Below are positions 20,076 through 59,838 of a stretch of 64,000 nt of DNA, piece after piece. A program made the translations under genes and the position numbers. Below the pieces are notes generated by a model, which was not told the DNA's origin, searched no databases, and saw nothing but the letters and a program-made list of their open reading frames with translations. Position 1 is the stretch's first letter, and every line of letters begins with the position of its first letter. The stretch comes from an uncultured Alphaproteobacteria bacterium (GTDB lineage Bacteria > Pseudomonadota > Alphaproteobacteria > Rs-D84), in assembly GCA_944390835.1 (NCBI GenBank), contig CALXQT010000010.1, positions 583-64,582 of the forward strand, written 5' to 3'.

Positions 20076-20109
20076 TTGTCAAGTTAGTTTGCCGTAGGAG
20101 AAAATAAAT

Positions 20110-26446: not shown

Positions 26447-26565
26447 TCATAAATATAATATTTTCTTGTTGAGTGTAATTTCATTATTGGAAAGACCGGC
26501 TTTTTATGATAAAATCATAATGATATTTATATAATACCTATTGAGTGTTATGAATGGAGAGAGTT

Positions 26566-27873
26566 ATGAAAAAACTAGTCTTGTTTGGTCTTTTTTTATT
26601 AGTTAGTTGGTGTCCTAATAACGTTTTTGCTGCATGTAAACCTACTAGCTGTAGCGTTAGTTCTGGGGATGACAGATTAAATGCAGATACTTTGGAAAAC
26701 ACCAGTAAAGCCAGAAAGTCTGCGGCAAGTTGTTACATTTGTGAACCAGATTATTGTGAAGATGGGGATATCGTTTATTTGGGAGATTTTTCAAGATTTA
26801 TGGTTTGCCGACAGTCTCCGGGGTGGATTGGAAATGATCGGTGGGAGACTTATACTCCAGAATACTGTCTTGATGAAACAGATTTAACGGTATCATTTAA
26901 TCGTGGAAACACTGGGTTGGCAAAATATTGGAAAATTGATGGTGTTAAATATGGTGAAACACAGGCGACTAAAAACGCTGCCACTACAACTCAGTCAGGG
27001 CAAAACGTTTGTTTTTATTATGGATGTCCCGATAATTATAAATTCGATGTAGAGGTAAATAAATGTGTTTCTAGTCAGAGCTCTATACCACCAGTAAAGG
27101 AGGAAGATGCCCCAGAAAAACTAAAGACTCCAGCAGCACAAGAAGGCGGAGGTCAGTCGGTATCTACAACTCAATCTTGTGTGGAATCACGCTGTGGCGG
27201 ATTAAGTGGAACGGCTAAAAGTCAATGTATTACGTGTTGTTATGTTTCGTCATCAATTGCTGTATGGAATTCTGCAACAAAAATATGTGAGTGTGCTGAT
27301 AAAAGCCTAACATTTGATCCTGTGAATTTGAGTTGTGAAGCGGCGGTTGTTGAAGAAGAAGTTCAAAATCAAGAACCTTATGAATGTGACCCTGTTAAAA
27401 TAGAACAATTGTCAAGTTGGGTTATAACTTATGCATCAAATAACCAGATTGTTGCTCAAATCAATCAGGTTTTTTCATACTGTGCGGATAATCCAAATTC
27501 CAGAGTTTTTGATACCCAATTTTTGCAAATTAAAAATATAGTAGATCGGGTAATTAGTGATGAAGATGCCAAAGAATTAAATCAGAAACAGATTGCTTGG
27601 CGAGACAGTATATCAAAAGCTGCAGCAGAAATGGATGATATAAAATCTGGTTTAAAACTTACTGTGTGGAAAGACGAAGAGGGAAACTTTAATACTTCAA
27701 GACTGTTATCTGATTCTATCGCGGGTGTTGTGCTGGGTACCGCTGGGGGATTAATAACGAGTAATGTTGTAAAGAAAAACCAAGTTGAAAATGGTTTTGA
27801 AGATATCCAATGCTCTATCGGTGGACAGGTTGTAGCCGGTTGGGGAGACGAGTTCCGCGTCGGTATCCAATAA
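26566..27873 (+). CDS. Cys-rich exported protein with a C-terminal glycine-zipper hydrophobic segment
   Basis: RBS ggagagag. Signal ..NNVFA/AC. More than 25 Cys. SIAGVVLGTAGGLITSNVV segment near the C-terminus. No family recognised. Confidence 0.5.
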   Translation: MKKLVLFGLFLLVSWCPNNVFAACKPTSCSVSSGDDRLNADTLENTSKARKSAASCYICEPDYCEDGDIVYLGDFSRFMVCRQSPGWIGNDRWETYTPEYCLDETDLTVSFNRGNTGLAKYWKIDGVKYGETQATKNAATTTQSGQNVCFYYGCPDNYKFDVEVNKCVSSQSSIPPVKEEDAPEKLKTPAAQEGGGQSVSTTQSCVESRCGGLSGTAKSQCITCCYVSSSIAVWNSATKICECADKSLTFDPVNLSCEAAVVEEEVQNQEPYECDPVKIEQLSSWVITYASNNQIVAQINQVFSYCADNPNSRVFDTQFLQIKNIVDRVISDEDAKELNQKQIAWRDSISKAAAEMDDIKSGLKLTVWKDEEGNFNTSRLLSDSIAGVVLGTAGGLITSNVVKKNQVENGFEDIQCSIGGQVVAGWGDEFRVGIQ

Positions 27874-40315: not shown

Positions 40316-40347
40316 AAAATCGGCGATTATTATCGCCGATTTTTTTA
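40315..40347. terminator. Bidirectional terminator (efp / fba)
   Basis: aaaatcggcgat-tatt-atcgccgatttt hairpin. Confidence 0.85.
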
Positions 40348-41289
40348 TATTTTATTTGCAGAACCCATAATATTTTTTATTTCATCGATACAATTTTCGT
40401 ATATGTTTTTCTTCCCAGCACCAAGGTAGTCACGAGGATTAAAATTATCTGGTTGTTTTGTCATTGTTTCTCGTATTCCTGCGGTAAACGCAAGACGAGA
40501 ATCACTGTCTACGTTGATTTTGCAGATGTTTTTTTTAACTGCTCGCTTTAGTTGTGATACAGCAATACCGCGTGCGTTAGATATTTTGCCCCCGTATTCG
40601 TTTATGGTTTTTACAAAGTGTTGAGGTATGCTGGATGCGCCATGCAATACAAGTGGAAAGTCAGGAAGTTGTTTTGCAATATCGTCAAGAATATCAAAAC
40701 GTAATTCTTCGTCATCGCTTTTTCGCTTATATGCGCCATGACTGGTGCCAATTGCAATTGCTAAAGAGTCTATATTCGTCGCGTTTACAAAGTTGACAAC
40801 GTCATCTGGATTGGTATAGCTAGAAAAGTCTGACTTTGTGCGTTCGTCTTCTATGCCAGATAAAACCCCGAGTTCTGCCTCTACTGATACGTCATATTGG
40901 TGGGCATATTCGACCACTTGTTTTGCCAAAGCGACATTAGATTCAAACGGTAATTTTGATCCGTCAATCATAACACTTGAAAAACCAAGTTTTATCGCAT
41001 TAACGCAAGATTCAAAAGAAGAACCATGATCCAAGTGCAGTGCGACACGGTTGCTGTCTTTTAAATTAAGTCCCCATATCATACCACGTAATAAATCTGA
41101 GCCCATGTATTTTAAAGCAGACTCTGATACAGCAAGAATAACGGGGCTGTTTGTGTCGTGTGCGGCCTCGATTATTGCTGCAAGTGTTTCCATATTATAG
41201 AAGTTAAATGCTGGTATCGCGTAATGATGTCTCAGCGCGTCCGCAAACATTTGTTTCGTATTTACCAAGCCAAAATCTTTATAGTCCAT
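40345..41289 (-). CDS. fba: Class II fructose-bisphosphate aldolase
   Basis: YAIPAFNF, LHLDHGSS, VMIDGS, HGAYK and LVLHGASS motifs. 314 aa. Confidence 0.9.
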   Translation of the reverse strand: MDYKDFGLVNTKQMFADALRHHYAIPAFNFYNMETLAAIIEAAHDTNSPVILAVSESALKYMGSDLLRGMIWGLNLKDSNRVALHLDHGSSFESCVNAIKLGFSSVMIDGSKLPFESNVALAKQVVEYAHQYDVSVEAELGVLSGIEDERTKSDFSSYTNPDDVVNFVNATNIDSLAIAIGTSHGAYKRKSDDEELRFDILDDIAKQLPDFPLVLHGASSIPQHFVKTINEYGGKISNARGIAVSQLKRAVKKNICKINVDSDSRLAFTAGIRETMTKQPDNFNPRDYLGAGKKNIYENCIDEIKNIMGSANKI

Positions 41290-41702: not shown

Positions 41703-42176
41703 ATGAAATTTAAAAACGTTGTATCTTTTAATATAAAAAGGGTTGTTCCTATATTAGGATTGGCTGGTGCCACCATGTTTATGGGGGGGTGCGAGAAAGA
41801 TGATAATGGTCCAACACGAGATGTTGAGATAAGATTTACACAGAAGGAAACAGACGATTTATTTTATGACGACGAAAATGATGTGCGTCATCCAAGTATC
41901 CTTGCGCAAGAGTACGTAAAAGATCCGACAATAAGGACAATATATTTAGTACCAGAAGGTACTTGGGCCAATATGGATCGAAATGGAATAAAAGGAATGC
42001 GCACAGCAACGTTAGACCTAATTATGAACTATTCTCCGAAATTTCGTGGTAAGGGCGATTTTAACTTCATGGTAGGAGAAGCTTCAAAAATCCCCGAAGA
42101 TAGTTTGTGGTATGTATCTAAAGGCTGGACGATAAATAAAAGATTATTGGAACAAGCTCAACAAAATCAGCGATAA
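41703..42176 (+). CDS. Tandem-paralog lipoprotein 1 of 3 (unknown family)
   Basis: Lipobox-like FMGGC. Conserved blocks DDLFYDDEN.VR.PS..AQEY, TIYLVPEG.W, SPKFRGKGDF, PEDSLW.VS.GWTINK. 157 aa. Confidence 0.75.
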   Translation: MKFKNVVSFNIKRVVPILGLAGATMFMGGCEKDDNGPTRDVEIRFTQKETDDLFYDDENDVRHPSILAQEYVKDPTIRTIYLVPEGTWANMDRNGIKGMRTATLDLIMNYSPKFRGKGDFNFMVGEASKIPEDSLWYVSKGWTINKRLLEQAQQNQR

Positions 42177-42188
42177 AAGGAATAAATA

Positions 42189-42662
42189 ATGAAACTAAAA
42201 CAAATAGTGCCATACAATATAAAAAAAATTATTCCTATGTTGGGGTTGGCTGGTGCCACCATGTTTATGGGCGGCTGTGAAAAGACGGAAGAGCCCCAGC
42301 AACGAGATGTAGAGATAACCTTTGCATATAAAAGTTATGACGATTTGTTTTATGATGATGAAAACGGGGTTCGTTATCCAAGTCTTAAAGCCCAAGAATA
42401 TGTAAATGACCCAACAGTAAGAACAATATACTTGGTACCACAGGGAAGTTGGGAAATTTATAACCGTTTTTCTATAACTGGAATGCGCGAAAAAACTCTT
42501 GAAAAAATTTTGGATTATTCACCTAAATTTCGCGGCAAGGGGGATTTTGATTTTAAAGTTGGTGAGGCCTCAAAAGTACCAGAAGACAGTTTATGGTTTG
42601 TATCCAATGGTTGGACAATAAATAAAAGACTATTAGAACAAAGTCAGCAAAATCAACGATAA
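42189..42662 (+). CDS. Tandem-paralog lipoprotein 2 of 3
   Basis: About 65-70% aa identity by eye to paralogs 1 and 3. Same length and lipobox. Confidence 0.75.
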   Translation: MKLKQIVPYNIKKIIPMLGLAGATMFMGGCEKTEEPQQRDVEITFAYKSYDDLFYDDENGVRYPSLKAQEYVNDPTVRTIYLVPQGSWEIYNRFSITGMREKTLEKILDYSPKFRGKGDFDFKVGEASKVPEDSLWFVSNGWTINKRLLEQSQQNQR

Positions 42663-42679
42663 ATTAACGGAGTACAAAA

Positions 42680-43147
42680 ATGAAATTTAAAAACGTTGTA
42701 TCTTATAATATAAAAAAGCTTGTTCCTATATTAGGATTGGCTGGTGCCACCATGTTTATGGGGGGCTGTGAAAAAACAGACGAAACCCCAAAAAGGGAAG
42801 TGGAATTAACTTTTGAACAAAATAGGTTTGATGATTTGTTTTATGATGATGAAAATGGTGTGCGTCGTCCAAGTCAAAAGGCTCAAGAATACATAGATGA
42901 TCCAACTGTTGGTACAATATATTTAGTGCCAGAAGGAAGTTGGCTTAACTTTGGTGAAATTGGTATTCACGCTTTACGTGAGCATGGTCTTGAACCTGTT
43001 ATGAAATATTCACCGAAGTTTCGTGGTAAAGGAGATTTTCGTTTTTCTTTAGGGGTCGCATCAACCATACCAGAAGACAGTTTATGGTTTGTATCCAATG
43101 GTTGGACAATAAATAAGTATGTGTCATCACAAACTAATCATAGATAA
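42680..43147 (+). CDS. Tandem-paralog lipoprotein 3 of 3 (mosaic: 5' end like paralog 1, 3' block identical to paralog 2)
   Basis: The first ~87 nt are nearly identical to 41703-41790. The 47-nt block 43080-43126 is identical to 42579-42625. Confidence 0.75.
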   Translation: MKFKNVVSYNIKKLVPILGLAGATMFMGGCEKTDETPKREVELTFEQNRFDDLFYDDENGVRRPSQKAQEYIDDPTVGTIYLVPEGSWLNFGEIGIHALREHGLEPVMKYSPKFRGKGDFRFSLGVASTIPEDSLWFVSNGWTINKYVSSQTNHR

Positions 43148-43174: not shown

Positions 43175-43238
43175 ATAAATTGACACTTTTGTTAAAAACG
43201 TGTAAAAATATAATTGATTAGTGGGAGATTTTTTCCAA

Positions 43239-44516
43239 ATGAAAAAAGTTATTATTTTCGCAGTAAGTATATGTATGGTTTTTATAACTAATGGTTTCGC
43301 TGATGATAACTCGCAAGTAACAGCTTGTGGTGCGCCAGATGATATAAATATGTGCGGAATGGGGTGTGAGTATGTATCTTTTAGTAAATCTTGTCAGCTG
43401 TGTCTTGAGGGTACATATAACAGTCAGGATTTAGCGTCTGAGTGTATCAATTGTTCCATCCCGGCAGGGGGGACGCCTTTAATTGGTGATGAGTATATGG
43501 GATTTATTGAAGATTCTTGCCCGTGGAAGGCAACTTGCACAAAATACCAATATTGGCAGCCTAAAGATACGAATTTGGTTCAGTGGGGCTGTCTAGATTG
43601 TGGAAAAGGATACGAATCTTCTTTAAAGGACGGATATGATGTTTATGGAAGAGGACCAGAGGCGGAAGATGCTAGTGGTCATAGTTTTGATGAGGTTTGT
43701 GATGGCATGATATATACATTAAACTTATTGGCAAACGATGGTGGCTTTGATGATCCAACTTTAGAGGGTGTCAGAGAGGAAAAGAACCTATATTATAAGT
43801 ACGATAATTATTTTTCTGCAGATGAGGCGCCTGAAGAATGGTCAACAGGGGCATTGCCAGATGGGTTCCTTCAGCCCTCCAGTATTCTTAAGACCTTCCT
43901 TGGTTATGGTTTATCTGAGGAGAACTGTAGTAACGGACATTTAGCCTTTGACTCGGAAGGTATTTTTTCGTTTTATGGAAAAGAAAACATATTGGAGTAT
44001 GTAGATGAACTTACCGGTAGTACTATTTCTTTACAAGCTTGTTGGTACAATAATTCAATTACTATTAATTATAATTATGGAGGTGCAGCGGGTAACACAA
44101 GGGAAACATGTGGTTTTAAATATAATAATGATGAATTTTTTGAATGTAAGGTAAATGATGAAATAGTAAGTGTAGATGGATTGGTTTTTGAAGGATACGA
44201 ATGTACTTATATCAAGGATGGAAATACCGTCAATTGTTATGAAGACGGCAAATTGCTGACGTATGATGAACAAATTCCTATTTTGGCACAAGAAATGTCT
44301 TTAACGGCAATATTTTCAGATTGTCCTGCTGGCTATTATTGTGGTGAAAGCGGTATAACAAAGTGCCCGATCGGAACAACAAGTAACCCTGGAAGTACCA
44401 GTATAGAGAAGTGTTTCATGAAGGCCGGAACGGATGGGACTAGGTTTTGCGACAATAACGGTTGCTTCTTTTTACCGGGTAGTTTTACAATTCCTTATAT
44501 GTCTAATAATCAATAA
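43239..44516 (+). CDS. Cys-rich secreted protein with terminal eukaryote-type Cys repeats (GCC2/GCC3- or TNFR-like) and central Listeria-Bacteroides-type repeats
   Basis: Signal ..NGFA/DD. CQLCLEGTYNSQDLASECINC and CPAGYYCGESGITKCPIGTTSNPGSTSIEKC. Central ..YTLNLLANDGG.. and ..ITINYNYGGAAG..FEGY.. repeats. Confidence 0.5.
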   Translation: MKKVIIFAVSICMVFITNGFADDNSQVTACGAPDDINMCGMGCEYVSFSKSCQLCLEGTYNSQDLASECINCSIPAGGTPLIGDEYMGFIEDSCPWKATCTKYQYWQPKDTNLVQWGCLDCGKGYESSLKDGYDVYGRGPEAEDASGHSFDEVCDGMIYTLNLLANDGGFDDPTLEGVREEKNLYYKYDNYFSADEAPEEWSTGALPDGFLQPSSILKTFLGYGLSEENCSNGHLAFDSEGIFSFYGKENILEYVDELTGSTISLQACWYNNSITINYNYGGAAGNTRETCGFKYNNDEFFECKVNDEIVSVDGLVFEGYECTYIKDGNTVNCYEDGKLLTYDEQIPILAQEMSLTAIFSDCPAGYYCGESGITKCPIGTTSNPGSTSIEKCFMKAGTDGTRFCDNNGCFFLPGSFTIPYMSNNQ

Positions 44517-47024: not shown

Positions 47025-48344
47025 ATGATTAAAAAGTTTTTTTCTGCTTGTTTGTTATGTTTTGCTTTTATTATTCCAGCTAGCGCAGAGTTAAAGGTTG
47101 ATATTATTGCAGGTGCGCTGGATCCTATCTCTGTTGCGGTACAAAAAATAGAAACCGTTGGAAATGTATCTACAAATGATGCGAAAATGATACGTGATGT
47201 TGTTGATGCAGATTTAAAATCGACAGGTTTATTTAGAATTGTCTCGCGTGATGCGTTACCAGAATTTGTAGAGATGGGAGAATTGCCAGATTTTCAACTT
47301 TGGGCGGCAGTCAAGGCACAAGTTTTGGTCCAAGCGAAATTGTCTGCTGAGTCAGGAGATAGGTATAACTTAGAGTTTTATGTTTGGGACGTTAATGCAA
47401 AAGAGCAGATAGAAGCACAAAGTTTGGTAGCATCTAAAAAATCTGCCAGGCGTTTGGCACATATTATGGCAGACGCAATATATGAACGTTTAACGGGAGA
47501 GGTTGGATATTTTGATACTCAAATAGTTTTTATTGCAGAAACTGGTCCTGTACATGACAGAACGAAGCGCATGGCAATCATGGATCAGGATGGCTATGGT
47601 TTGCGGTATTTGTCGGATAAGAAAACATTTGTTATGTCGCCGCATTTTTCACCGAATATGCAGACTATAGTTTTCTTATCGTACCGTGATAACGATCCTA
47701 TGGTTTGGACTTTGGATTTGGAAACCGGCGAGCAAAGGCGATTAGGGCAATTTGGTGGTATGAATTTTGCACCGCGTTTTTCACCAGATGGAACAAAAAT
47801 TGCCTTGTCTTTGGTTAAAAACGGAATTACTCATATATATGAATATGATATAGAAACGAAATCTTTAAAACAGTTGACGTTCGGAAATTCATTGAATACC
47901 AGTCCTTCGTATTCACCAGATGGTAAAAAAATGGCATTTAATTCCGATCGAAGTGGGAAACAACAGATTTATGTATTAGACTTGGAAACTGGCGGGGTTG
48001 AACGCATAACTTACGGGGCAGGGCGTTATGCAACACCGGCATGGTCTCCAGATGGAAAGTTTATTGCTTTTACTAAAATGGCCGATGATACTTTTTATAT
48101 TGGTATTATGGATCCTCGTGGACGTAACGAGAAAATTTTAGCAGGTGGCTGGTATATGGAGGCACCATCTTGGGCCCCAGGCTCTCGTCGATTGGTATAT
48201 TATGAAACAGAAAAAGCTTTAGATGGTATAGAACGTATAAGCCATATTCGTAGCGTCGATATAACAGGGCAAAATATTTATGAAATAGACTTGCCGGACG
48301 ACGTTAATGGAGTAGAACCAACTTGGTCGCCAAAATTACCATAA
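47025..48344 (+). CDS. tolB: Tol-Pal system beta-propeller protein TolB
   Basis: Signal peptide. Repeated ..P.WSPDGK.IAF.. blades (FSPDGTKIAL, YSPDGKKMAF, WSPDGKFIAF). 439 aa. Confidence 0.9.
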   Translation: MIKKFFSACLLCFAFIIPASAELKVDIIAGALDPISVAVQKIETVGNVSTNDAKMIRDVVDADLKSTGLFRIVSRDALPEFVEMGELPDFQLWAAVKAQVLVQAKLSAESGDRYNLEFYVWDVNAKEQIEAQSLVASKKSARRLAHIMADAIYERLTGEVGYFDTQIVFIAETGPVHDRTKRMAIMDQDGYGLRYLSDKKTFVMSPHFSPNMQTIVFLSYRDNDPMVWTLDLETGEQRRLGQFGGMNFAPRFSPDGTKIALSLVKNGITHIYEYDIETKSLKQLTFGNSLNTSPSYSPDGKKMAFNSDRSGKQQIYVLDLETGGVERITYGAGRYATPAWSPDGKFIAFTKMADDTFYIGIMDPRGRNEKILAGGWYMEAPSWAPGSRRLVYYETEKALDGIERISHIRSVDITGQNIYEIDLPDDVNGVEPTWSPKLP

Positions 48345-48757
48345 TGAGAAGAAGCGTTATTACTGTTTTAATTTTGTCTTTGATGGCGGGCAGAGTTTAT
48401 GCTTTACCCGCCATTGTTGATAGAGTTCTAGACGGAGATACTTTTGCGGCACGCGTTAATTTGGCAGACGATACCGAAGTTACTGTTAAAGTACGTCTGT
48501 TAGATGTAGATACACCAGAAATAAATGGTTTATGTCAAAGTGAAATAGACAAAGCTTATAAAGCGAAAAACAGGACTGCTCAACTTTTACCCGTTGGATC
48601 TGCTGTTGAGTTATCGGATATAAAAGATGATAAATATTTAGGTCGTATAGATGCTCGCGTTCGTATATCAGATGGTCGTGATTTATCAGATATTTTAGTA
48701 AAGGAAAAACTTGGCAGAAAGTATGATGGAAAAAAGCGTCAAAGCTGGTGTAAATGA
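48344..48757 (+). CDS. Secreted thermonuclease (staphylococcal-nuclease-like)
   Basis: TAATG overlap with the tolB stop. Signal peptide. VLDGDTF..VRLLDVDTPE..DKYLGR motifs. Confidence 0.8.
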   Translation: MRRSVITVLILSLMAGRVYALPAIVDRVLDGDTFAARVNLADDTEVTVKVRLLDVDTPEINGLCQSEIDKAYKAKNRTAQLLPVGSAVELSDIKDDKYLGRIDARVRISDGRDLSDILVKEKLGRKYDGKKRQSWCK

Positions 48758-52221: not shown

Positions 52222-52250
52222 TTGTCTGGGGGGGGGATTTGTGATATACT
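52222..52250 (+). promoter_or_regulatory. Candidate phase-variable promoter: TTGTCT - 17-nt spacer containing G9 - (TG-n-)TATACT
   Basis: ttgtct at 52222-27. G9 at 52228-36. Spacer ends with tga at 52242-44. tatact at 52245-50. ATG of the OMP gene lies at 52277 with RBS aaggaagga. Confidence 0.5.
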
Positions 52251-52276
52251 TTTTTAAAAGTAAAAGGAAGGACAAT

Positions 52277-53002
52277 ATGAAAAAATTAATATCTTTGGTT
52301 GCTTTATTAGGGGTAACAACTACTGGGGCTATTGCGGCGCCAAGTTATTTAACGCGTGATAATAGTGGTGGTTATCGTGTAACATATGATTATACAGATA
52401 AAGCGAAAACTGGTTGGTATGTTGGTGCCCGTGCGGATTTTAATTTTCTAAACTGGGAAAATAAGTATAGCCTTGATGATGGTCTAAAAGGTCCTGAGGA
52501 CTTTGAAAACGATAAATATTCTTTTGAACCTGTTTTTGGTGGCAGTGCTTTCGCTGGTCGTCGTTTTGCATACTTCTGGCGTGCAGAATTAGAAGCAGGT
52601 TATATGGGATACTTTGAAGATAAGGATGCATCTTCTGAATTTTCGTTGCAAATCCCTTACGTTATGCTGAACGGTTATTATGATTTCGTAAATGGCATCT
52701 ATTTGGGGGTTGGTGTCGGTGCAGCAGTGCCTATTACAACAATTGATACGGTATATTCTAGTGGTGGTGAACGTAAAGAGTATGGGGTTTCTCCAATGGC
52801 TGGTGTGATGCTAGGGTATTCTTATGAATTAGATAACAATTTAGTACTAGATTTACGTTATCGTCTGTCTGGAATGACTGGTTTAGATCAACGCATAAAT
52901 GATATTGAAGTTAAATATATGCCAGGTGAACATTGGTTCCAAAATGATATAGATTTTATTTTAGATAATTCTTTATCAATTGGTATTAGATATGAATTTT
53001 AA
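52277..53002 (+). CDS. Outer-membrane beta-barrel protein (Omp25/31-like)
   Basis: Signal ..GAIA/AP. Beta-strand periodicity. C-terminal ..IGIRYEF. Related in pattern to the 5511-6122 protein. Confidence 0.7.
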   Translation: MKKLISLVALLGVTTTGAIAAPSYLTRDNSGGYRVTYDYTDKAKTGWYVGARADFNFLNWENKYSLDDGLKGPEDFENDKYSFEPVFGGSAFAGRRFAYFWRAELEAGYMGYFEDKDASSEFSLQIPYVMLNGYYDFVNGIYLGVGVGAAVPITTIDTVYSSGGERKEYGVSPMAGVMLGYSYELDNNLVLDLRYRLSGMTGLDQRINDIEVKYMPGEHWFQNDIDFILDNSLSIGIRYEF

Positions 53003-53023
53003 CCAAAATAGGTATTGACCCGA

Positions 53024-53053
53024 TTCGTTGAAATATGATATTATTATGTAGGT
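53024..53053 (+). promoter_or_regulatory. Candidate promoter of the fibre-gene array (TTGACC-N18-TATTAT with an upstream TG)
   Basis: ttgacc at 53024-29. tg at 53045-46. tattat at 53048-53. Confidence 0.45.
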
Positions 53054-53064
53054 AGAGAGAATAG

Positions 53065-55278
53065 ATGAAAAACGATTTGAAAATTTCGAAATTAGCAATT
53101 GTTTGCGTCTTGTGTACTGCTGTATCTGGTGCATATGCTGCTTCATCTGTAAGGTCGTTGGGTGGTAGTGGTACTTATACCAGTGCGTCTAGTGCGGCAG
53201 AAGCGAATGCTTCTTCTTCTGTACGTGGCGGTTCTGTTCGTGTAACGCCTTCGTCTGGTGTTTCAGGTACAAGTACGACTGTAAACGCCGGAACAACTAC
53301 CAGCGGTCGTGTTGCAACAACGCCTCGTTTATCAATAGGACAATATCTAGGTGGAACTACTTCTGTTAGTGGGGGCAGTTCTTTACGTCCGCAGACTCCG
53401 AGTGGTGGTTCGTCTTCTTCTGGTGGGTCTGGTTCTATAGATGAAGAATTTGTTGAAATTTTGCGTAGTGATGTAGATGAGTTGCAAGGAACGGTTGAGA
53501 CCTTACGTCAAAGTGATGAACGGTTAGAGGACCAACTTCTTGATAAGCAAGATGCACTTGTCCCTGGTCAAGATGGTTATATTTTTATAGATACAAATAC
53601 GAATGAAATATTTGTAGAAGTAGATGCTTTAGAAGAAGCATTGAAAGATAGCTTGCAATTATCTGATGGTAAGGACGGCCGTGAAGTAGAATTGGGTTAT
53701 AACGAAACAGAATTGTTGTGGCGTTATAATGACGGCAGTCCGTGGGAACATTTGATATACAAATCTGAAATTACTGGTCCGCAGGGACCTCAAGGTGAAA
53801 AGGGTGAAAAGGGTGATAAGGGTGACAAAGGTGATCCAGGTGATGCGGCGGATTTGAGTAATTATCCTACATTAGCGCAAATGGACTCAAAAATTGCGAC
53901 CGCAATTGCCAGCATTGCCACTACTTATGCAACCAAAGATGAATTGGCTCTAAAGGCTGATAAAACAGAGCTAGCAGCTTATGCTACGACAGAGCAATTA
54001 AATGCGAAAGCGGATGCAACTGATGTAGAAGCACTAGATATGGTAATAAATGCGGCCGGTACAGGTTTGACTGCCCAAGTAAATAATGCTTTGCAGGTTG
54101 CGGGTGGCGCGCAAGATATGGCAGAAGCGGCCCAGAGTACAGCAGAAGCAGCTCAGGGTACTGCAGAAGCGGCTCAAGCTGCGGCAAATGAAGCCAAGGC
54201 TGGTCTAGCGACAAAAGCAAATGCTGCGGATGTATATACCAAAAGCGAAGTTTATAATAAGCAAGAAATAGAAGATAAGGTTGCAGAAATCGTTGCTGGT
54301 GATGGTGTTGTATTAGAGGGATATGTAAAGAAAGAAGATTTTAATAGTGCGATTAATCTTAAGGCTGATACAACTTATGTAGATCAAGAGTTAGATAAAA
54401 AGGCAGATGTAGTATCTGTTTCTGCACTTGAAACAGAAGTCGGTGACATAAATGATCTTGCTATTAGTGCTGCAGAAGCAGCCACGCAGGCAATCAATGA
54501 ATTGGATTTAAAAGCCAGTAAAACAGAATTAGATAGTTATTTGAAATCTGATACAGCGGCTTCTACATATGCTACTAAGGAAGAATTGGGGACCAAGGCG
54601 AATGCATCAGACGTACAAACAATTACTGAAAGTGTTACGAATATAACACAACAGGTTAATCAGATAACAAATCCGGAAACGGGTTTAGCTGCTCAGGTTG
54701 ATGATGCGGTTTCTGCAGCTGAAGGGGCTCAGCAGGCGGTTACAGAAATGCAGGGGGACGTAAATGCATTAAAGACAACTGTTGGCAACGAGAGTTCTGG
54801 TTTGGTCAAAGATGTTGCAGATGCTGTGTCTGCGGCTGGGGCTGCCGTAAGTGCTGCAGAAGAAGCAAATACTCTTGCTGGTAAGGCGGAATCTGATGCT
54901 GCAGCGGCACAAGCAAAGGCTAATCAGGTAGAAGAAAATTTAAATTTGAAAGAAAATTTAAGTAATAAAGTCTCAAGTATCACAGAAGGTAATCAGAATT
55001 CTCAAGATGCATATCCGTCTGTTGGTGCAATTGTTAAATGGACTGATACTAAGATTGAAAGTTTATCGGATTCAGGTTTACCTGTAAATCCTGATAACTT
55101 TAATGACAATTCTATTAGTGGAACCAAGTTAGAAAACGATACGGTAACTCAAGGGAAATTGTCGCCTGATGTTCAGCAGGTATTAAATAATGCTGTGACG
55201 GTTGACGATAATGTCGGCGCAAACAAAGTGCTGGGTACTGATGATACAGGTGCCAAAGTATGGTATGATATAATTTAA
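53065..55278 (+). CDS. Fibre protein 1: exported, S/G/T-rich N-terminal region, coiled-coil segments, collagen-like GXY run, A/T/E-rich stalk
   Basis: Signal ..SGAYA/AS. GPQGPQGEKGEKGDKGDKGDPGD. Repeated Y(A/V)TK.EL..KAD boxes. YPSVGAIVKW and LPVNPDNFNDNSISGTKL boxes. 737 aa. Confidence 0.8.
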   Translation: MKNDLKISKLAIVCVLCTAVSGAYAASSVRSLGGSGTYTSASSAAEANASSSVRGGSVRVTPSSGVSGTSTTVNAGTTTSGRVATTPRLSIGQYLGGTTSVSGGSSLRPQTPSGGSSSSGGSGSIDEEFVEILRSDVDELQGTVETLRQSDERLEDQLLDKQDALVPGQDGYIFIDTNTNEIFVEVDALEEALKDSLQLSDGKDGREVELGYNETELLWRYNDGSPWEHLIYKSEITGPQGPQGEKGEKGDKGDKGDPGDAADLSNYPTLAQMDSKIATAIASIATTYATKDELALKADKTELAAYATTEQLNAKADATDVEALDMVINAAGTGLTAQVNNALQVAGGAQDMAEAAQSTAEAAQGTAEAAQAAANEAKAGLATKANAADVYTKSEVYNKQEIEDKVAEIVAGDGVVLEGYVKKEDFNSAINLKADTTYVDQELDKKADVVSVSALETEVGDINDLAISAAEAATQAINELDLKASKTELDSYLKSDTAASTYATKEELGTKANASDVQTITESVTNITQQVNQITNPETGLAAQVDDAVSAAEGAQQAVTEMQGDVNALKTTVGNESSGLVKDVADAVSAAGAAVSAAEEANTLAGKAESDAAAAQAKANQVEENLNLKENLSNKVSSITEGNQNSQDAYPSVGAIVKWTDTKIESLSDSGLPVNPDNFNDNSISGTKLENDTVTQGKLSPDVQQVLNNAVTVDDNVGANKVLGTDDTGAKVWYDII
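53776..53847 (+). repeat. Collagen-like (Gly-X-Y)x8 coding tract built from imperfect 9-bp tandem units
   Basis: ggtccgcag ggacctcaa ggtgaaaag ggtgaaaag ggtgataag ggtgacaaa ggtgatcca ggtgatgcg. Confidence 0.9.
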
Positions 55279-55295
55279 GGAAAGGGATATAGAAA

Positions 55296-56813
55296 ATGAA
55301 AAAGGTAAATATCGTATTTTCTGGTTTTATGGCGGCAATATTATTAAGTGCCGGCGCAGCTGATGCAGCAACGACAATAGCCAGCCAGGCGTATGTAGAT
55401 AGTCAGAAAGCAAATGTCTTGCAAACTGTTGATGATACATATGCGACAAAAGAATCTGTTACTGGCTTTTCCGATCAAGTAACGCAGTTAGAAACAACGG
55501 TTGGGGATGAAGCATCGGGTTTGGTAAAAGATGTTGCAGATTTGCAAACTGAAGTTGCAGGTAAGTTGGATTCTGTAACAGCGGGAACTACATACCAGAC
55601 ATTGGGGAACAAAACTGATAATTTGACGGCGGATGCAGAAAGTACAGAGAAATATCCATCGGCCAAAGCCGTTACTGATGCCATTAAAACGGCCACCGAA
55701 GGTGTTGCGTCTAGTGGGGCAATTACGGATTTACAAGATAAAGTTGGTGACGGGGTGTTAAATACAACCGCACAGGATTTGACGGGTGCCGTGAATGAAT
55801 TAGACGGGGCGTTGGACGACAAAGCAGATAAAACGGATTTGGATGCTTATGCAACCACGGTTCAATTGGATACAAAGCAAAATAAAAATATTCCAAGCGC
55901 AATAAATCATGTCGTTATTACAGATGCTTCTGGTAACATTACAACAGCGGCACAACTTGCTGCGGATAAGGTCAGCGGGTTAGCAGGTGTAGCGACAAGC
56001 GGGCAATATTCTGATTTGTCTGGAACGCCGACGATTCCGACAGCGGTGTCAGACCTTGAAAACGACAGTGGGTTTATTACAAATACTGCTTTAACCGGTC
56101 TGCAGGAAAAGAACGTTGGTGCTGATAAAAGTGGTAATATATTAACTGTTGGTGCCGATGGGAATATCACACCAAGTGCTGCAATTGAACAAGATAAAGT
56201 TAATGGTTTGACAGATGCGTTGGCGGGTAAAGCGTCTATAGATGATGTTCCAACAACGGTCGCTGAATTATCAGATTCAGCCAATTATGTAACAACAACG
56301 AAACTGACAGAAGATTTAGCAACAAAACAGGATCGTTTGGGCTTTACACCGGAAAATTCTGCTAATAAAGCAAAGACAATAGATTCTCTTAATGAAGCGT
56401 CAGATACTGCGTTCCCGACAGTTGGTGCTATAACCTCATGGGTTTCTTCAGAAATTTCTGATTTAAGTGAGCTGCCGGTTAATCCAGGTTTGATTGAAGA
56501 TAATACTTTAGACGGTTCAAAGCTAAAGAACGGTGCGGTTACAACAGAAAAAATTTATGATGGTGCAGTTACCACAGATAAAATTGCAACTGGTGCTGTA
56601 ACAGAAGCAAAATTAAGCACAGAACTGCAACAAACAATTAACAATAAAGCAAATTCTGATGATGTTTATACAAAGGTTCAAACAGACGCCAAGATTCTTG
56701 AATTGGCTGTCGGGAAACCAACACAAAAATGTTTGGCGTCGTCTTTGTGTGTATTAAGTGTAACGAAAGACGGAACTTACGAATGGACAAGTGTTACAGA
56801 GCCAACCGAATAA
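55296..56813 (+). CDS. Fibre protein 2 (exported, tail-fibre-like boxes)
   Basis: Signal ..GAADA/AT followed by TIASQAYVDS. Boxes KYPSAKAVTDAI, LTGAVNELDGAL, GQYSDLSGTPTIPTAVSDLENDSGFIT, FPTVGAITSWV, LPVNPGLIEDNTLDGSKL. 505 aa. Confidence 0.8.
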   Translation: MKKVNIVFSGFMAAILLSAGAADAATTIASQAYVDSQKANVLQTVDDTYATKESVTGFSDQVTQLETTVGDEASGLVKDVADLQTEVAGKLDSVTAGTTYQTLGNKTDNLTADAESTEKYPSAKAVTDAIKTATEGVASSGAITDLQDKVGDGVLNTTAQDLTGAVNELDGALDDKADKTDLDAYATTVQLDTKQNKNIPSAINHVVITDASGNITTAAQLAADKVSGLAGVATSGQYSDLSGTPTIPTAVSDLENDSGFITNTALTGLQEKNVGADKSGNILTVGADGNITPSAAIEQDKVNGLTDALAGKASIDDVPTTVAELSDSANYVTTTKLTEDLATKQDRLGFTPENSANKAKTIDSLNEASDTAFPTVGAITSWVSSEISDLSELPVNPGLIEDNTLDGSKLKNGAVTTEKIYDGAVTTDKIATGAVTEAKLSTELQQTINNKANSDDVYTKVQTDAKILELAVGKPTQKCLASSLCVLSVTKDGTYEWTSVTEPTE

Positions 56814-56864
56814 AAGATAAACGGCAATATAGGAATTTAACATAAAAAAAGAAAGGAAAGGAAA

Positions 56865-58061
56865 ATGAAAAAACTAACCGCAAGTATATTTGCAACATTA
56901 TTGACGGTTGTAACTGTCGGCGCCGCTAACGCGGATATCGCATCCAGTGGGTATGTAGATACAAAAGTTGGTGAAGTAAGTGCTAAAGTTGCGACAAAAG
57001 CTGAACAATCAGATCTTACAGATTTGGAAGGGACTGTAACAACTTTGTCTGGAACGGTTTCTGGACACACAACTTCTATCGCTAATTTGGAAACAAATAA
57101 AGCTGATAAAACAGCATTATCTGCTTACGCGACAACGGAAAGTGTAACATCTGGTTTGGCGGGGAAGCAAGATAAAGCCCTGATTACATCTACACAATAT
57201 GGAACAAATAAAACGAGTGATACATCGTATCCATCTGTAAAGGCGGTCGCGGATGCAATTACAGCTGCAACAGAAAATATTGCAAGCAGCGATACTGTTT
57301 CCGCATTGGGTACTCGTGTAACAACGGCAGAAGGTGATATCACAGCCTTAAAGGCTCGTATGGATACAGCAGAGTCTGATATTGCAACAGTAGAAGGTAC
57401 AGTAGGCACAGCAAGTGCGAATGCTACTCAGGCGTTGAATAATATTGGTACGTTAAGTCAATTGACGACAACCAAGAAAGATAATACAGTTAATGCGATC
57501 AATGAAGTTAAGACTGCGGCTGATAATGCAGCATCTGCAGCATCGACAGCACAAGGCGCAGTTACAACTTTGACTGGTCGGGTTGGTAAGAATGAAACAA
57601 ATATTTCGGCGTTGCAAAGTGGCAAGTTAGATGTTGGTGGTACTGCAGCAAAAGCAACAGCGGATGCCGCCGGTAATAACATTGTTGATACATATGCAAC
57701 AAAAGCTCAAATAGCAAATATGGCAACAGAGGAAAATCTGAATTTGAAGCAGGATAAAACAGATAATTCTCTGGCCACAACGGCTAAGACGATTGTTGGT
57801 GCTATCGGCGAAGTAAAAACAACGGCTGATGATGCTTTAGCCGATGCGGCGACAGCACAGGCAGATGCTACACAGGCAATCTCTGATGCAGCGACAGCGA
57901 AGGGTGTGGCAGATGCAGCACAGAGCACAGCTAATCAGGCCAAGACAACTGCTGATGCGGCTATCCCAAAACCAAGTGCGGACCAGATCAACTCTAATGG
58001 CGTATATGTTTTGACCTTTAATGGTACAAATGGTTATGCGTGGGAAACAATTACTCGTTAA
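56865..58061 (+). CDS. Fibre protein 3 (exported, tail-fibre-like boxes)
   Basis: Signal ..GAANA/DIASSGYVDTKV. Boxes SYPSVKAVADAI, NTVNAINEVKTAAD, TIVGAIGEVKTTAD. Ala/Thr-rich coiled-coil-like stalk. 398 aa. Confidence 0.8.
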   Translation: MKKLTASIFATLLTVVTVGAANADIASSGYVDTKVGEVSAKVATKAEQSDLTDLEGTVTTLSGTVSGHTTSIANLETNKADKTALSAYATTESVTSGLAGKQDKALITSTQYGTNKTSDTSYPSVKAVADAITAATENIASSDTVSALGTRVTTAEGDITALKARMDTAESDIATVEGTVGTASANATQALNNIGTLSQLTTTKKDNTVNAINEVKTAADNAASAASTAQGAVTTLTGRVGKNETNISALQSGKLDVGGTAAKATADAAGNNIVDTYATKAQIANMATEENLNLKQDKTDNSLATTAKTIVGAIGEVKTTADDALADAATAQADATQAISDAATAKGVADAAQSTANQAKTTADAAIPKPSADQINSNGVYVLTFNGTNGYAWETITR

Positions 58062-58068
58062 TAAAACA

Positions 58069-58098
58069 TATGTGCGGTGCCTAACCGCACCGCACATA
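58069..58098 (+). other. GC-rich intercistronic hairpin without a U-tract, between fibre genes 3 and 4
   Basis: tatgtgcggtgc-ctaacc-gcaccgcacata, a 12-bp stem. Confidence 0.7.
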
Positions 58099-58157
58099 GG
58101 ATGTAGGGTATAAATGTGTTAATGTAAACAGTAAAACGATTGGATAGAAATAGGGCT

Positions 58158-59795
58158 ATGATAAAGTTAAAAGAAATTTTTTCAGTTTCATTTATAGCAC
58201 TGTCAATTTGCAGTGTGGCACATGCAGATATCGCATCTACTGGTTATGTTAACCAGCAATTGAGTGGGCGTCTGTCTTCAATTTCTGCTTCTAGTAGTGG
58301 GACGGGTAACGTTGTTACTTCCATTTCTGCCAGTGGCGGGACTGTTACTGCAACTAAAGGGATAAATGCGGAAGTTACTTCCAATAAGACAACGTCTATC
58401 GCAGCATCAACCAGCGCCAGTGATACAAAGTATCCATCTGAAAAGGCGGTCAGGACCGAATTAGATAAGAAAGCAGATATTGATGATGTGCCAGCGGCAA
58501 TTACTGTTGATTCTGCTTTAAACTCAACAAGTACAAATCCTGTCCAAAACAAAGTTATAAATACTGCTTTGGCGGCTAAACAAAACGCAAGTACTGCGGT
58601 TGAAGTCGCTTCAGCTGGTACTGCCGTTGGTAGCGCAAGTCAGCCTGTTTATGTCGATAATACCGGGGTAGTGCGTGCGGCAAATTCAATTCCAACTGTA
58701 AATAATGCAACGTTAACTATTCAAAAAAATGGTTCTGATGTCGGAACGTTTACTGCAAATGCTTCTTCGCCGGCAACAATTAATATAACGGTACCTACAA
58801 CAACATCTCAATTGACTAATAACAGTGGGTTCATTACAGCTGATGATTTACCAGAAGATTATGTTTTAACTGCTGCTACTGCAACTGCGTTGGGTGGTGT
58901 TAAAAGTGGAGGCGATATAGAGGTTGGAACTGACGGTACAGTAACTGTTAATAGTGCGAATAGCGCAGATAGTGCAACTAAAGCGACTCAAGATGGGAAT
59001 GGGAATACTATTTCATCTACGTATACAAAAATTGCACAAGGTTCTACTAATGCTAACAAGGCTGTTATAACAAATGCATCTGGTAATATTACAACAGGTA
59101 CTATAACAAGTGCTATGATTACAGATGGTACCATAACAAATGCTGATATATCTTCGTCTGCAGAAATTGATCAATCAAAGATTTCAGGATTATCAACCGC
59201 ATTGGCGGCAAAGGTAGATTCTACAGATTTAGCGGAAGTTGCAAAAACAGGTTCATATAATGATCTGACCAATAAACCAACGATTCCAACCGCGATTACA
59301 GTTGATGCTGCCTTGAGTTCAACAAGTACAAATCCTGTTCAAAATAAAGTTATTAATACTGCATTGGCGGCAAAACAAAATGCAAGTACTGCCGTTGAAG
59401 TTGCCTCAGCTGGGACTGCTGTGGGTAGTGCAACTCAACCTGTTTATGTCGATAATACTGGTGTAGTGCGTGCGGCAAATTCAATTCCAACTGTAAATAA
59501 TGCGACTTTGACCATTCAGAAAAATGGCTCGTCTGTTGGTACGTTTACCGCAAATGCCGCAAATGCCGCAACGGTAAATATTACTGTGCCGACTAAAACT
59601 TCTGAATTAAGTAACGATAGTGGTTTTGTTACTTCGGCGCAACTTAATGCGTTGGATAGTACGTCTTCTGGGAGTGGTGCCGTTGTTACAGAGGTTGCAC
59701 AGGTAAATGGTAAGGTTACTGTTACAAAAGGTAATGTTCAAATACCTGTTGGTAGTGCTACTGCCACTACATATGCTACTATTTGGGTAGAATAA
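58158..59795 (+). CDS. Fibre protein 4 (exported; contains a ~114-aa internal duplication)
   Basis: Signal ..SVAHA/DIASTGYVNQQL. Boxes KYPSEKAVRTEL, STNPVQNKVINTALAAK (x2), GSYNDLTNKPTIPT, (T/S)N(N/D)SGF(I/V)T. Start is 58158 ATG or 58140 TTG. Confidence 0.8.
   Translation: MIKLKEIFSVSFIALSICSVAHADIASTGYVNQQLSGRLSSISASSSGTGNVVTSISASGGTVTATKGINAEVTSNKTTSIAASTSASDTKYPSEKAVRTELDKKADIDDVPAAITVDSALNSTSTNPVQNKVINTALAAKQNASTAVEVASAGTAVGSASQPVYVDNTGVVRAANSIPTVNNATLTIQKNGSDVGTFTANASSPATINITVPTTTSQLTNNSGFITADDLPEDYVLTAATATALGGVKSGGDIEVGTDGTVTVNSANSADSATKATQDGNGNTISSTYTKIAQGSTNANKAVITNASGNITTGTITSAMITDGTITNADISSSAEIDQSKISGLSTALAAKVDSTDLAEVAKTGSYNDLTNKPTIPTAITVDAALSSTSTNPVQNKVINTALAAKQNASTAVEVASAGTAVGSATQPVYVDNTGVVRAANSIPTVNNATLTIQKNGSSVGTFTANAANAATVNITVPTKTSELSNDSGFVTSAQLNALDSTSSGSGAVVTEVAQVNGKVTVTKGNVQIPVGSATATTYATIWVE
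58497..58838 (+). repeat. Internal direct repeat, copy A (pairs with 59292-59633)
   Basis: Encodes AITVDSALNSTSTNPVQNKVINTALAAKQNASTAVEVASAGTAVGSASQPVYVDNTGVVRAANSIPTVNNATLTIQKNG... Confidence 0.9.
59292..59633 (+). repeat. Internal direct repeat, copy B (795 nt downstream of copy A)
   Basis: Near-identical protein sequence to copy A. The DNA differs mostly at third-codon positions. An identical 41-bp core gtagtgcgtgcggcaaattcaattccaactgtaaataatgc is present in both copies. Confidence 0.9.
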
Positions 59796-59804
59796 GAACT
59801 AAAC

Positions 59805-59838
59805 AAAATCCCCGTTCTGGGGATTTTAATTTTTTGTT
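59805..59838 (+). terminator. Rho-independent terminator after the fibre array
   Basis: aaaatcccc-gttct-ggggatttt hairpin plus T-run. Confidence 0.85.

Follow-up and report, generated by a model that had tools for sequence, protein, structure and literature searches.

A conserved operon for Sec-exported, phage-fibre-like proteins in Rs-D84 gut alphaproteobacteria

The subject of this analysis is a set of four tandem genes, numbered F1 to F4 in operon order, that encode long, Sec-exported, fibre-like proteins in an uncultured alphaproteobacterium. They lie in a 64 kb stretch of DNA, referred to throughout as the window, directly behind a gene for a small outer-membrane barrel protein. The LepA encoded in the window is 96 % identical to that of Candidatus Enterousia avicola, and by its sequence the DNA can be assigned to the Candidatus Enterousia / Rs-D84 gut alphaproteobacteria, an uncultured lineage. 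Enterousia is placed in Rs-D84, an order of GTDB, and has genomes of 0.75-1.0 Mb. Genomes of Rs-D84, below 1 Mb in size, encode neither the tricarboxylic acid cycle nor respiration nor the standard transporters, and these bacteria have been proposed to depend on a partner (PMC12306168). On one side the operon is flanked by tolB, SNase, plsC, DUF218, ftsX, ftsE and pal and on the other by PAP2, dedA, rbfA and lepA, which include the pal/ftsEX and PAP2/rbfA/lepA flanks named in the initial annotation, a first reading of the window's sequence. Across the whole 64 kb no phage gene was found, and 35 further open reading frames scanned with Pfam added none; outside the fibre genes, Pfam finds housekeeping or envelope genes, or nothing, and none of these genes is phage-related.

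All four fibre genes follow one another on the same strand as the barrel gene, with starts where they had first been placed (Table 1). At the start of each protein a positively charged n-region and a hydrophobic core precede a canonical AXA site (AYA before A in F1, ADA before A in F2, ANA before D in F3 and AHA before D in F4), which agrees with the earlier prediction of a cleavable Sec signal peptide on every product; neither a lipobox cysteine nor a twin-arginine motif can be read in any of them. The proteins are rich in Ala (12-19 %) and Thr (9-17 %), and Ser is also abundant. A motif check recovered every short box that had been listed as shared and phage-fibre-like: [YF]P[ST]xxA[VI] is present in all four proteins, DL[ST]xxPT[IL]P and [ND][ND]SGF[IV]T occur in F2 and F4, and F4 holds two copies of STNPVQNKVI.

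The operon is bounded by a promoter and a terminator. The promoter matches the consensus at 10 of 12 positions, a score that in the scan by itself does not rise above chance (22 sites compared with 23 expected). Nevertheless, a block of the form TTGACCCGATTCG...TGnTATnAT...GTAGAGAGA-ATG, in which GTAGAGAGA is a conserved ribosome-binding stretch between the promoter and the F1 ATG, is conserved in the barrel-F1 spacer across ~37 related genomes, and because the same block recurs in these genomes the spacer can be read as a real, conserved promoter and ribosome-binding region. The promoter-like site of the initial annotation is thus upheld, at 53015-53044 instead of 53024-53053. In the spacer at 53003-53064, and in the equivalent spacer of loci L009-L049, a 13-nt block, TTGAC(C)CCGATTCG, is kept beyond the -35 in ~37 genomes; the extra CCGATTCG next to the -35 may be a regulator binding site. 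The terminator claimed after F4 was also found, at 59805-59827, as a 10-bp stem followed by a T run. Between F3 and F4, at 58069-58098, lies an inverted repeat whose 12-bp stem has 7 G-C pairs. The + strand carries no T tract there, and the repeat may act in mRNA stability or processing and not as a terminator.

Table 1. Features of the barrel-fibre operon; nucleotide positions are those of the window, residues those of the encoded protein.
Feature	Nucleotides	Strand	Residues	Details
Barrel gene	52277-53002	+		241 aa; signal peptide 1-20; ends in beta-signal ...GIRYEF
Promoter	53015-53044	+		-35 TTGACC at 53015-53020, 18-nt spacer, extended -10 TG-TATTAT ending at 53044
F1	53065-55278	+		737 aa
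F1 signal peptide			1-25	
F1 conserved N-terminal module	53140-53400		26-112	Arg/Ser/Gly/Thr-rich; unique to F1
F1 small module			202-231	GKDGREVELG..LLWRY.G..W
F1 collagen run	53776-53841		238-259	GPQGPQGEKGEKGDKGDKGDPG
F1 nonads	53926-54033		288-323	YATKDELAL KADKTELAA YATTEQLNA KADATDVEA; four exact repeats
F1 NadA-like stalk motif			384-406	
F2	55296-56813	+		505 aa
F2 signal peptide			1-24	
F2 mature N-terminus			25-35	ATTIASQAYVD; contains IASxxYVD motif
F2 GAVTTxKI repeats			407-440	
F2 C-terminal hairpin	56718-56804		475-503	P-x-P ... C ... CVLSV ... W
F3	56865-58061	+		398 aa
F3 signal peptide			1-23	mature N-terminus DIASSGYVD, then Ala/Thr-rich coiled coil
F3 C-terminal hairpin	57963-58058			IPKP...YVLTF...GYAWETITR
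F4	58158-59795	+		545 aa
F4 signal peptide			1-23	mature N-terminus DIASTGYVN, then beta-rich shaft of phage-fibre modules
F4 internal 300-nt duplication	58491-58790 and 59286-59585			83 % identical
F4 conserved C-terminus	59667-59792			..GAVVTxVxQxxGKVTVTKGNVQIPVGSATATTYATIWVE
Intrinsic terminator	59805-59827	+		10-bp stem (4 G-C pairs), 3-nt loop, T-rich tail

Scanned for the pattern, a set with one genome for each GTDB species yielded 41 loci, and all of them lie in gut metagenome-assembled genomes (MAGs). Among them are loci of Candidatus Enterousia avicola, intestinigallinarum and excrementavium, of an 'uncultured Rickettsiales UMGS', and of Alphaproteobacteria from Hadza and Brazilian human cohorts and from horse, sheep and roe deer. 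In ~37 of the 41 the order is the same: TolB-SNase-PlsC-DUF218-FtsX-FtsE-Pal, with Pal on the minus strand, the barrel on the plus strand followed by F1, F2, F3 and F4, and then DedA/RbfA/LepA; a fifth fibre gene is sometimes present, rarely more. This synteny is also kept in contigs of 430-500 kb. Comparison with related genomes, which had been proposed as a check, therefore finds the locus and its gene order conserved in ~37 species-level MAGs, whose hosts are human, chicken, horse and ruminants, and the locus is a conserved core feature of the whole lineage. Within +/-10 kb of these ~37 syntenic loci there are only housekeeping neighbours and no phage genes, structural genes among them; the absence of a prophage context noted for the window holds in this wider context, where a degraded prophage had been the concern. 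In the divergent locus L034 the genes are reordered, with the barrel after the fibre genes but still adjacent, and in L044, whose context is unrelated, small fibre-like genes again lie among barrel genes. A further locus (L038) is catalogued as Bacteroides fragilis; it shows the Rs-D84 gene order in full, tolB through the fibre genes, and its contig was most likely mis-binned into a Bacteroides MAG.

Across these loci the fibres have diverged further than the flanking genes and the barrel. Aligned globally to the window's proteins, F1-F4 have a median identity of 28-37 %, compared with 63 % for the barrel, 73 % for Pal, 82 % for TolB and 92 % for LepA, and the fibres differ widely in length (F1 295-1073 aa, F2 285-699 aa, F3 204-595 aa, F4 233-992 aa). 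The divergence is concentrated in the shaft: mean pairwise identity in the fibres is 46-68 % over the signal peptide and 55-86 % over the first 12 mature residues, but 16-28 % over the shaft, with 31-42 % over the last 45 residues. In the barrel, used as a control, the corresponding values are 49 % and 57 %, then 62 % over the mature middle and 50 % over the last 45 residues. The same contrast is seen within a species. A conspecific contig (L217) is 98.9 % identical to the window in the flanks and 95 % in F2-F3, but the F1 and F4 shafts are unalignable, replaced, or carry large indels (its F4 has 307 aa and that of the window 545 aa); dS is 0.05-0.11 in F2/F3 and 0-0.02 in the flanks, and dN/dS is 0.32-0.69. 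The fibres have conserved ends and a hypervariable shaft, even between conspecific strains. Their shaft divergence points to imported or shuffled segments together with relaxed or diversifying selection, and the pattern is typical of exposed surface proteins.

F1 differs from the other fibres at its N-terminus. Its signal peptide is followed by an 87-residue module, described as low-complexity, for which the alignment of 37 orthologues gives the consensus ASSVRSLGGsGTY ... SVRGGSvRV ... GRVATTPRLSIGqYLGGgTSVSGGSSlRPQTP. The module matches 321 cluster representatives; of the 150 representatives listed, most are matched from residues 25-29 onwards, immediately behind the signal peptide. It is probably the best candidate for a cell-proximal attachment. 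The idea that it forms the barrel anchor of an 'inverse' trimeric autotransporter adhesin (TAA) was rejected on reading the sequence, as only ~12 of ~100 residues are hydrophobic and the composition is Gly/Ser/Thr/Arg-rich. After the module come, in order, a Gly/Ser linker, a coiled coil, the small GKDGREVELG module, the collagen run and a long alpha/beta coiled coil. The GKDGREVELG..LLWRY.G..W unit is found elsewhere as a tandem repeat beside collagen or 'phage tail repeat' regions. The collagen-like run attributed to the first protein is present, with seven uninterrupted G-X-Y triplets and not the eight first counted; it scores 19.4 bits against Pfam Collagen, under the 27.2 cutoff, and is short for a stable triple helix unaided. 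In a similar way, the description of the sequence as heptad-like was partly right, since the repeats listed for F1 in Table 1 are four perfect 9-residue units, not heptads; such nonads form trimeric alpha/beta coiled coils (PMC4786415). Residues 372-409 align to the NadA stalk (PDB 4cjd, E 0.0046), a motif-level similarity, and fainter matches are to GCN4 beta-layer constructs (E 0.17-0.86) and the Tcar0761 construct 5apz (E 0.79). F1 also matches a PHROG tail fibre (E 1.1e-6). Its matches in IMG/VR are essentially to the collagen run alone and hold little information. The protein ends in ..VLGTDDTGAKVWYDII, with the family consensus ..VLGTD..G..VWY.I.

F2 and F3 resemble each other at both ends. 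In both families an IAS(K/Q)(Q/G)YVD motif lies 0-4 residues from the start of the mature chain, which ends in IP-x-P ... C ... CVL ... G ... W..V. The Cys pair in this ending covaries: either both are present or, if the first Cys is missing, Tyr or Leu takes the second position. In the AlphaFold monomer of F2 (pLDDT 54) the helices are broken every 15-25 residues and there are three beta-hairpins, two of them internal; the last hairpin (strands 484-489 and 495-500) and the Pro segment before it reach pLDDT 77-83 over residues 471-500. The low overall value is expected because the protein would be an obligate oligomer, and at that value a fold search with the monomer was not justified. The arrangement of a Pro-rich segment, a hairpin and a conserved Trp recalls the foldon, but a profile of 22 C-termini against the PDB gave no foldon match and hhalign of the C-termini against the foldon sequence gave a probability of 0.2; these two tests do not support homology, and only a foldon-like layout is retained. 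None of the 487 F2 homologues is named. The F2 family profile matches chain H (orf16) of PDB 9eg4, a capsid model of Legionella phage LME-1, with E 2e-5, and this match runs through the GAVTT.KI repeats; neither F2 nor its family profile found a match in the IMG/VR scans. F2 scores 14.1 bits against Fibritin_C (PF07921), under the cutoff of 21, and its orthologue P0029 reaches 28.6 bits, in the coiled-coil part only (model positions 2-62 of 93). F3 matches the P22 tail-needle gp26 (E 9.6e-4) and a PHROG tail fibre (E 6e-4), and its coiled-coil segments are common to 17 IMG/VR viral loci. Residues 313-366 of F3 match Alanine_zipper marginally (23.7 bits, with a Pfam cutoff of 23.1; 16.5 against 43 in NCBIfam), but F3 is not of the Lpp/OprI type: it has no lipobox and is 398 aa long.

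F4 has 3355 homologues and matches at least 150 IMG/VR viral loci. One of these encodes a 1080-aa protein (L051) that is a genuine tail fibre by its PHROG match (E 3.6e-44), and F4 aligns to it by BLASTP with E 3e-22. The alignment includes the SGSYNDL.NKPTIP box and reaches 77 % identity over 47 aa in the stretch IPTVNNATLTIQKNG..V.TFTANA....NITVPTKTS.L.NDS. In addition, the F4 family profile matches gp28 (E 2.3e-6), a fibre of cyanophage P-SCSP1u whose structure is solved, via ITS..I.DGTI.NADI.ASAAI..SK. The last gene of each locus, F4 or, where there are five genes, F5, has a C-terminus distinct from those of F1-F3, ..GAVVTxVSQTDGKVxVTKGNVxIPVGS..AT.YA.IWVE. On another IMG/VR viral contig (L053, 7896-8918), a 340-aa phage protein ends in ..NIPGGSIWIE, resembling this C-terminus; from this likeness, the IWVE terminal element of F4 may also come from phage fibres.

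The curated libraries Pfam, NCBIfam and PHROGs, scanned with F1-F4, gave only sub-threshold or marginal matches. No protein passes a curated threshold except F3 with its marginal Alanine_zipper score, in line with the first reading, and almost no homologue of the fibres or the barrel has a name or a Pfam domain. Some orthologues do pass Pfam thresholds, for Fibritin_C and Phage_head_fibr and, in an F4 orthologue, for YadA_head. Single-sequence PDB searches with the fibres returned weak motif matches only, and tblastn with F2 and F4 found no match in 50,697 GenBank phages. The phage link shows only with metagenomic viral contigs and in profile searches. There the proposal of phage-fibre-like modules is borne out by the F4 match to the viral-contig tail fibre and the profile matches of F4 to gp28 and F2 to orf16, and at the level of sequence modules the shafts are shown to be homologous to phage tail and head fibres. 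A similar search for an anchor came back empty, as had been predicted: F1-F4 have no YadA-type anchor, autotransporter barrel or Peptidase_S74 match at E <= 0.1, and no lipobox.

The mature N-termini of F2-F4 offer a further point of comparison. In the window, I[AT]S..YV[DN] occurs only at these three positions. A phage fibre cluster (L201) has the motif ...PTASGDAANKAYVDAEV ~70 residues from the N-terminus, and several phage fibres have a related motif, DAANK(A/Q)YVD, ~70 residues in. Motifs of this YVD type were matched 12 times in 328 kaa of sampled phage proteins, with ~1 expected by a rough estimate; 6 of the 12 lie 71-88 residues in, often exactly at residue 71. F2-F4 thus look like phage-fibre shafts that start at a phage-fibre-like motif, with a signal peptide replacing the virion-attachment domain.

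We next consider the barrel, which adjoins the fibre genes in ~37 genomes and has 347 homologues. Its AlphaFold model (pLDDT 85.5, pTM 0.76) has eight long strands, and its top Foldseek matches are to the transmembrane domain of OmpA and to NspA, OprG, Ail and OmpX (E 3.5e-10 to 3e-5). Orthologues carry PF13505 and PF01389, and the window's own protein falls just under threshold (Opacity 19.7 bits, cutoff 21). It is thus predicted to be a small 8-stranded OmpA/NspA/Ail-type protein with no pore. Several barrels of the OmpA/NspA/Ail/OmpX/Opa class bind external ligands via a protruding beta-sheet. The window's protein is like them in fold and size, and it differs from them in an N-terminal extension of 25 nearly invariant residues (APSYLTRDxxGGYxVTYDYTDKAK) ahead of strand 1, and in its fixed place beside a fibre operon. 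The initial annotation had suggested export of the fibres through this barrel or through an orphan secretin in the same window. The model and the Foldseek matches rule out a translocon: with eight strands and no pore the barrel cannot export the fibres, and it would be at most a docking partner, possibly through its long strands, which would protrude as a sheet, or through its N-terminal extension. As for the secretin, nothing links it to the fibres. It is the sole outer-membrane channel seen in the window, lies 32 kb from the operon and belongs to a pair at 19083-21738, in which a TcpQ-domain gene (330 aa, Pfam E 5e-18) is directly followed by the secretin gene (542 aa, E 3e-13). A neighbour of this kind suggests a secretin of the type IVb-pilus type. 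Genes for a pilus ATPase or a pilin are missing alongside, and dprA is 2 kb downstream; in this reduced genome the pair may be what is left of a channel for DNA uptake or of a type IVb pilus. The Rs-D84 genome study makes no mention of adhesins or secretion systems and has nothing on pili in Rs-D84.

Several known systems share parts of this picture. Phage fibres such as T4 fibritin, T4 gp34-37, P-SCSP1u gp28, P22 gp26 and the phi29 head fibre have tandem fibre genes, as here, and phage fibres have shaft modules in common with the F proteins: SYNDLTNKPTIP; IPTVNNATLTIQKNG..TFTANA..NITVPTKTS.L.NDS; ITS..I.DGTI.NADI.ASAAI..SK; and an RxTTAEGDI coiled coil. The C-terminal hairpin of the window's fibres has a foldon-like layout, as in T4 fibritin, although profile tests do not support homology. 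Unlike phage fibres, F2-F4 pass at once from the signal peptide to the YVD motif with no virion or baseplate attachment domain, and F1-F4 are chromosomal, sit in a housekeeping location and are vertically conserved across the order.

TAAs (YadA, NadA; type Vc) also have a signal peptide, followed by trimeric coiled-coil stalks broken by beta-layers, to which F1 shows a motif-level similarity in its nonads (PMC4786415) and its NadA-stalk alignment at 384-406; some orthologues have head-type repeats, and the proposed adhesin role would be common to both. F1-F4 differ from them in having no C-terminal 4-strand anchor (PF03895), the defining export and anchoring device, and their C-termini (..VWYDII, ..YEWTSVTEPTE, ..YAWETITR and ..ATIWVE) have no terminal aromatic beta-signal. 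Because TAAs are anchored C-terminally, the polarity here is probably the opposite, with the conserved N-terminal end as the candidate attachment end. The Lcl protein of Legionella pneumophila is a Sec-exported, type II-secreted, collagen-containing trimeric adhesin that reaches the surface without an autotransporter domain; it is encoded by a single gene and has long collagen repeats and a distinct C-terminal domain. The collagen in our fibres, by comparison, is a seven-triplet insert in one of four proteins, and no type II secretion genes were seen near the locus.

By analogy, the closest system in function and concept is the mosaic adhesive trimer (MAT) family of Bdellovibrio bacteriovorus, Sec-exported, phage-like trimers shown on the cell surface (PMC10769870). 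Both are cellular, non-prophage genes with Sec signals and phage-tail-fibre-like products; in both, several paralogues per genome have one end conserved (for retention in MAT) and the rest mosaic or variable, and both hosts depend on contact with other cells, if the partner dependence proposed for Rs-D84 holds. The cell-surface anchor of MAT is likewise not known (Caulton et al. 2024, PMC10769870). The differences are nonetheless considerable. MAT comprises 21 genes identified genome-wide and not described as a single operon, has a beta-rich domain, conserved and ~130 aa long, right after the signal peptide, and many members end in a Peptidase_S74 chaperone or lectin-like tip (PMC10769870). 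F1-F4, in contrast, lie in one operon beside a barrel gene. Set apart by description, F2-F4 start at the YVD motif and run into a coiled coil (the F2 model is helical from residue 27, with low confidence there, and F3 and F4 have the same N-terminal motif), and F1 has its 87-residue module. Their conserved C-terminus is a small hairpin, with no S74 or other tip-domain match, and PDB searches gave no sequence match to the solved MAT tips. The four fibres would therefore be analogous to MAT and belong to a different family; they are specific to an uncultured gut lineage, and we rate the way their operon is organised and their terminal motifs as not yet described.

The remainder of the window contains recJ, lolA, tatC, gatAB, suf genes, plsY, dprA, dnaA, gyrB, dnaJ, uvrC, an asmA-like gene, dnaN, ppa, efp, fba and tolB, and the dnaA, dnaN and gyrB housekeeping content places it near oriC. 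Several of its genes deserve mention in their own right. A small secreted SNase-like nuclease gene (48323-48757) overlaps the end of tolB and keeps this position in related genomes; it would fit nucleotide scavenging. Three tandem paralogous lipoprotein genes of ~156 aa each (41703-43147, lipobox ..FMGGC) belong to no Pfam family. Two Cys-rich secreted proteins of 431 and 439 aa (43221-44516 and 26554-27873) have no family assignment, the former with a weak ephrin-receptor-like Cys-repeat match only, and may be further surface or host-interaction proteins. A 515-aa protein (7380-8927) with a sub-threshold match to the Autotransporter beta-domain (E 3.9e-5) and a C-terminal ...GLKF that resembles a beta-signal is probably a classical autotransporter; type V secretion therefore seems to exist in this genome. 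On the minus strand, 40345-41289 encodes a clear class II fructose-bisphosphate aldolase (Pfam E 4e-95), contrary to the statement that Rs-D84 genomes lack this enzyme (PMC12306168).

Taken together, these observations lead us to favour, in roughly even balance between belief and doubt, a reading in which F1-F4 are four separate Sec-exported homotrimeric fibres, made from phage-derived shafts and displayed on the surface as adhesins of a partner-dependent bacterium. In this lineage-wide chromosomal operon of Candidatus Enterousia / Rs-D84, each product would form a homotrimer in which the virion-attachment domain of a phage-fibre shaft has been exchanged for a signal peptide, the mature chain of F2-F4 opening at IASxGYVD. 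The C-terminal beta-hairpin with its Pro-x-Pro and Trp, often clamped by the covarying Cys pair, would register the trimer in a foldon-like manner. The fibres would then reach the outside of the outer membrane, where the F1 N-terminal module may hold the cell-proximal end and the protruding sheet of the barrel may serve as a docking partner. The conserved ends would serve export, trimer registration and attachment, the exposed shafts would be free to become hypervariable, and the displayed fibres would bind a partner or host cell. We infer trimerisation by analogy, because collagen runs, nonad coiled coils and fibritin-, head-fibre- and YadA-type modules are obligate trimers.

Several points weigh against this proposal. 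The trimeric state is argued from module types, and surface localisation and adhesin binding are likewise deduced from the genes. The foldon homology that might have supported registration failed both sequence tests, and the F2 monomer model is of low confidence (mean pLDDT 54). No outer-membrane translocation route was found, the barrel being too small and the window's only secretin distant, and lipobox and library scans find no anchor domain in F2-F4. The YVD motif of F2-F4 resembles a generic phage-fibre motif and may be structural, not an attachment site. Finally, the adjacency of barrel and fibres could merely reflect the strong general synteny of the region.

The order of the genes raises another possibility, which we consider unlikely: that the four proteins are joined head to tail in a composite fibre, like T4 gp34-35-36-37, with the F1 N-terminus at the cell, each C-terminal hairpin docked to the next IASxGYVD N-terminus and the IWVE end of the last gene as the distal tip. 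The ends are arranged as this would require, with a unique N-terminus and a hairpin end in F1, a YVD start and a hairpin end in F2 and F3, and IWVE in the last gene; an F1-type first gene and an IWVE-type last gene are found even in the rearranged locus L034, the ~17-nt median gap between F1 and F2 across loci suggests coupled synthesis, and a phage ancestry of the modules suits such an assembly. However, the N-terminal motifs of F2, F3 and F4 are near-identical, as are the hairpins, and nothing specifies an order; several genomes have 3, 5 or at least 6 fibre genes or no IWVE type (L033, L043, L047), and the conserved termini are equally explained by the needs of folding and registration. Slightly less likely again is that the fibres are released, shed into the medium or on vesicles, as soluble, lectin-like agglutinins, phage or antibody decoys, or matrix components. 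Their hypervariability fits exposure to outside selection, and F2-F4 have no anchor domain, lipobox or beta-signal, but the conserved signal peptide and first 12 residues and the N-terminal module of F1 argue for a specific cell-bound interaction, and it is unlikely that ~0.8 % of a ~0.9 Mb genome would be given over to protein that is shed. A bolder form of the head-to-tail assembly, which we think improbable, is a composite organelle rooted via the F1 module to the barrel, exported outside known pathways, that serves Rs-D84 as its device for holding a host cell; if true, it would be the cell's equivalent of the long tail fibre of T4.

Alternatively, the fibres could be Sec-exported coiled coils that remain in the periplasm as a periskeleton or as a spacer between the outer membrane and peptidoglycan. 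The tol-pal/ftsEX neighbourhood, the marginal Lpp/OprI alanine-zipper match of F3 and the lack of an evident export route agree with this, and the 25-residue extension of the barrel, which by the usual OmpA topology would face the periplasm, could be the partner. We nevertheless regard this as quite improbable, since two- to four-fold length variation between species (as in F1 and F4) is unsuited to a spacer of fixed dimension, strain-level shaft replacement and indels are unsuited to it as well, and it is not obvious what phage receptor-binding-type modules and collagen runs would do in the periplasm. A split trimeric autotransporter, with TAA-like passengers and an anchor supplied in trans by another barrel protein, would account for the NadA-type stalk motif and nonads of F1, the YadA_head repeat of an F4 orthologue and the constant adjacency of the barrel gene; an 8-stranded barrel has no lumen for three helices, there is no YadA_anchor match and the C-termini are soluble hairpins, which makes it very unlikely, and we know of no trans-anchored TAA. 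At the far end lies a functionless remnant of the tail-fibre module of a prophage, tailocin or gene-transfer agent. The shaft modules are common to phage tail fibres, but with no other phage gene in the window or around the syntenic loci, and with four intact genes that have signal peptides and share a promoter conserved across the whole order, we rejected this on context and conservation, and it is close to refuted; to our knowledge, virion proteins are not normally Sec-exported.

The favoured reading, surface-displayed adhesive fibres, bears on how these bacteria might live. Rs-D84 / Enterousia are uncultured, occur in human, chicken, horse, sheep and roe-deer gut MAGs and are thought to live off a partner. 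The operon takes up ~0.8 % of the genome, has its own conserved promoter and is present in every related genome examined, and the fibre genes are the fastest-evolving in the neighbourhood; it therefore has the profile expected of a main contact structure. The conserved termini offer targets for antibodies or probes with which to find the partner and enrich the cells, and the variable shafts could be used for strain typing. The Rs-D84 and Bdellovibrio fibres share the question of how they traverse the outer membrane and stay attached to it. If our reading is true, Rs-D84 would join Bdellovibrio as the second, independent example in which cells have turned parts of phage fibres into surface fibres exported by Sec.

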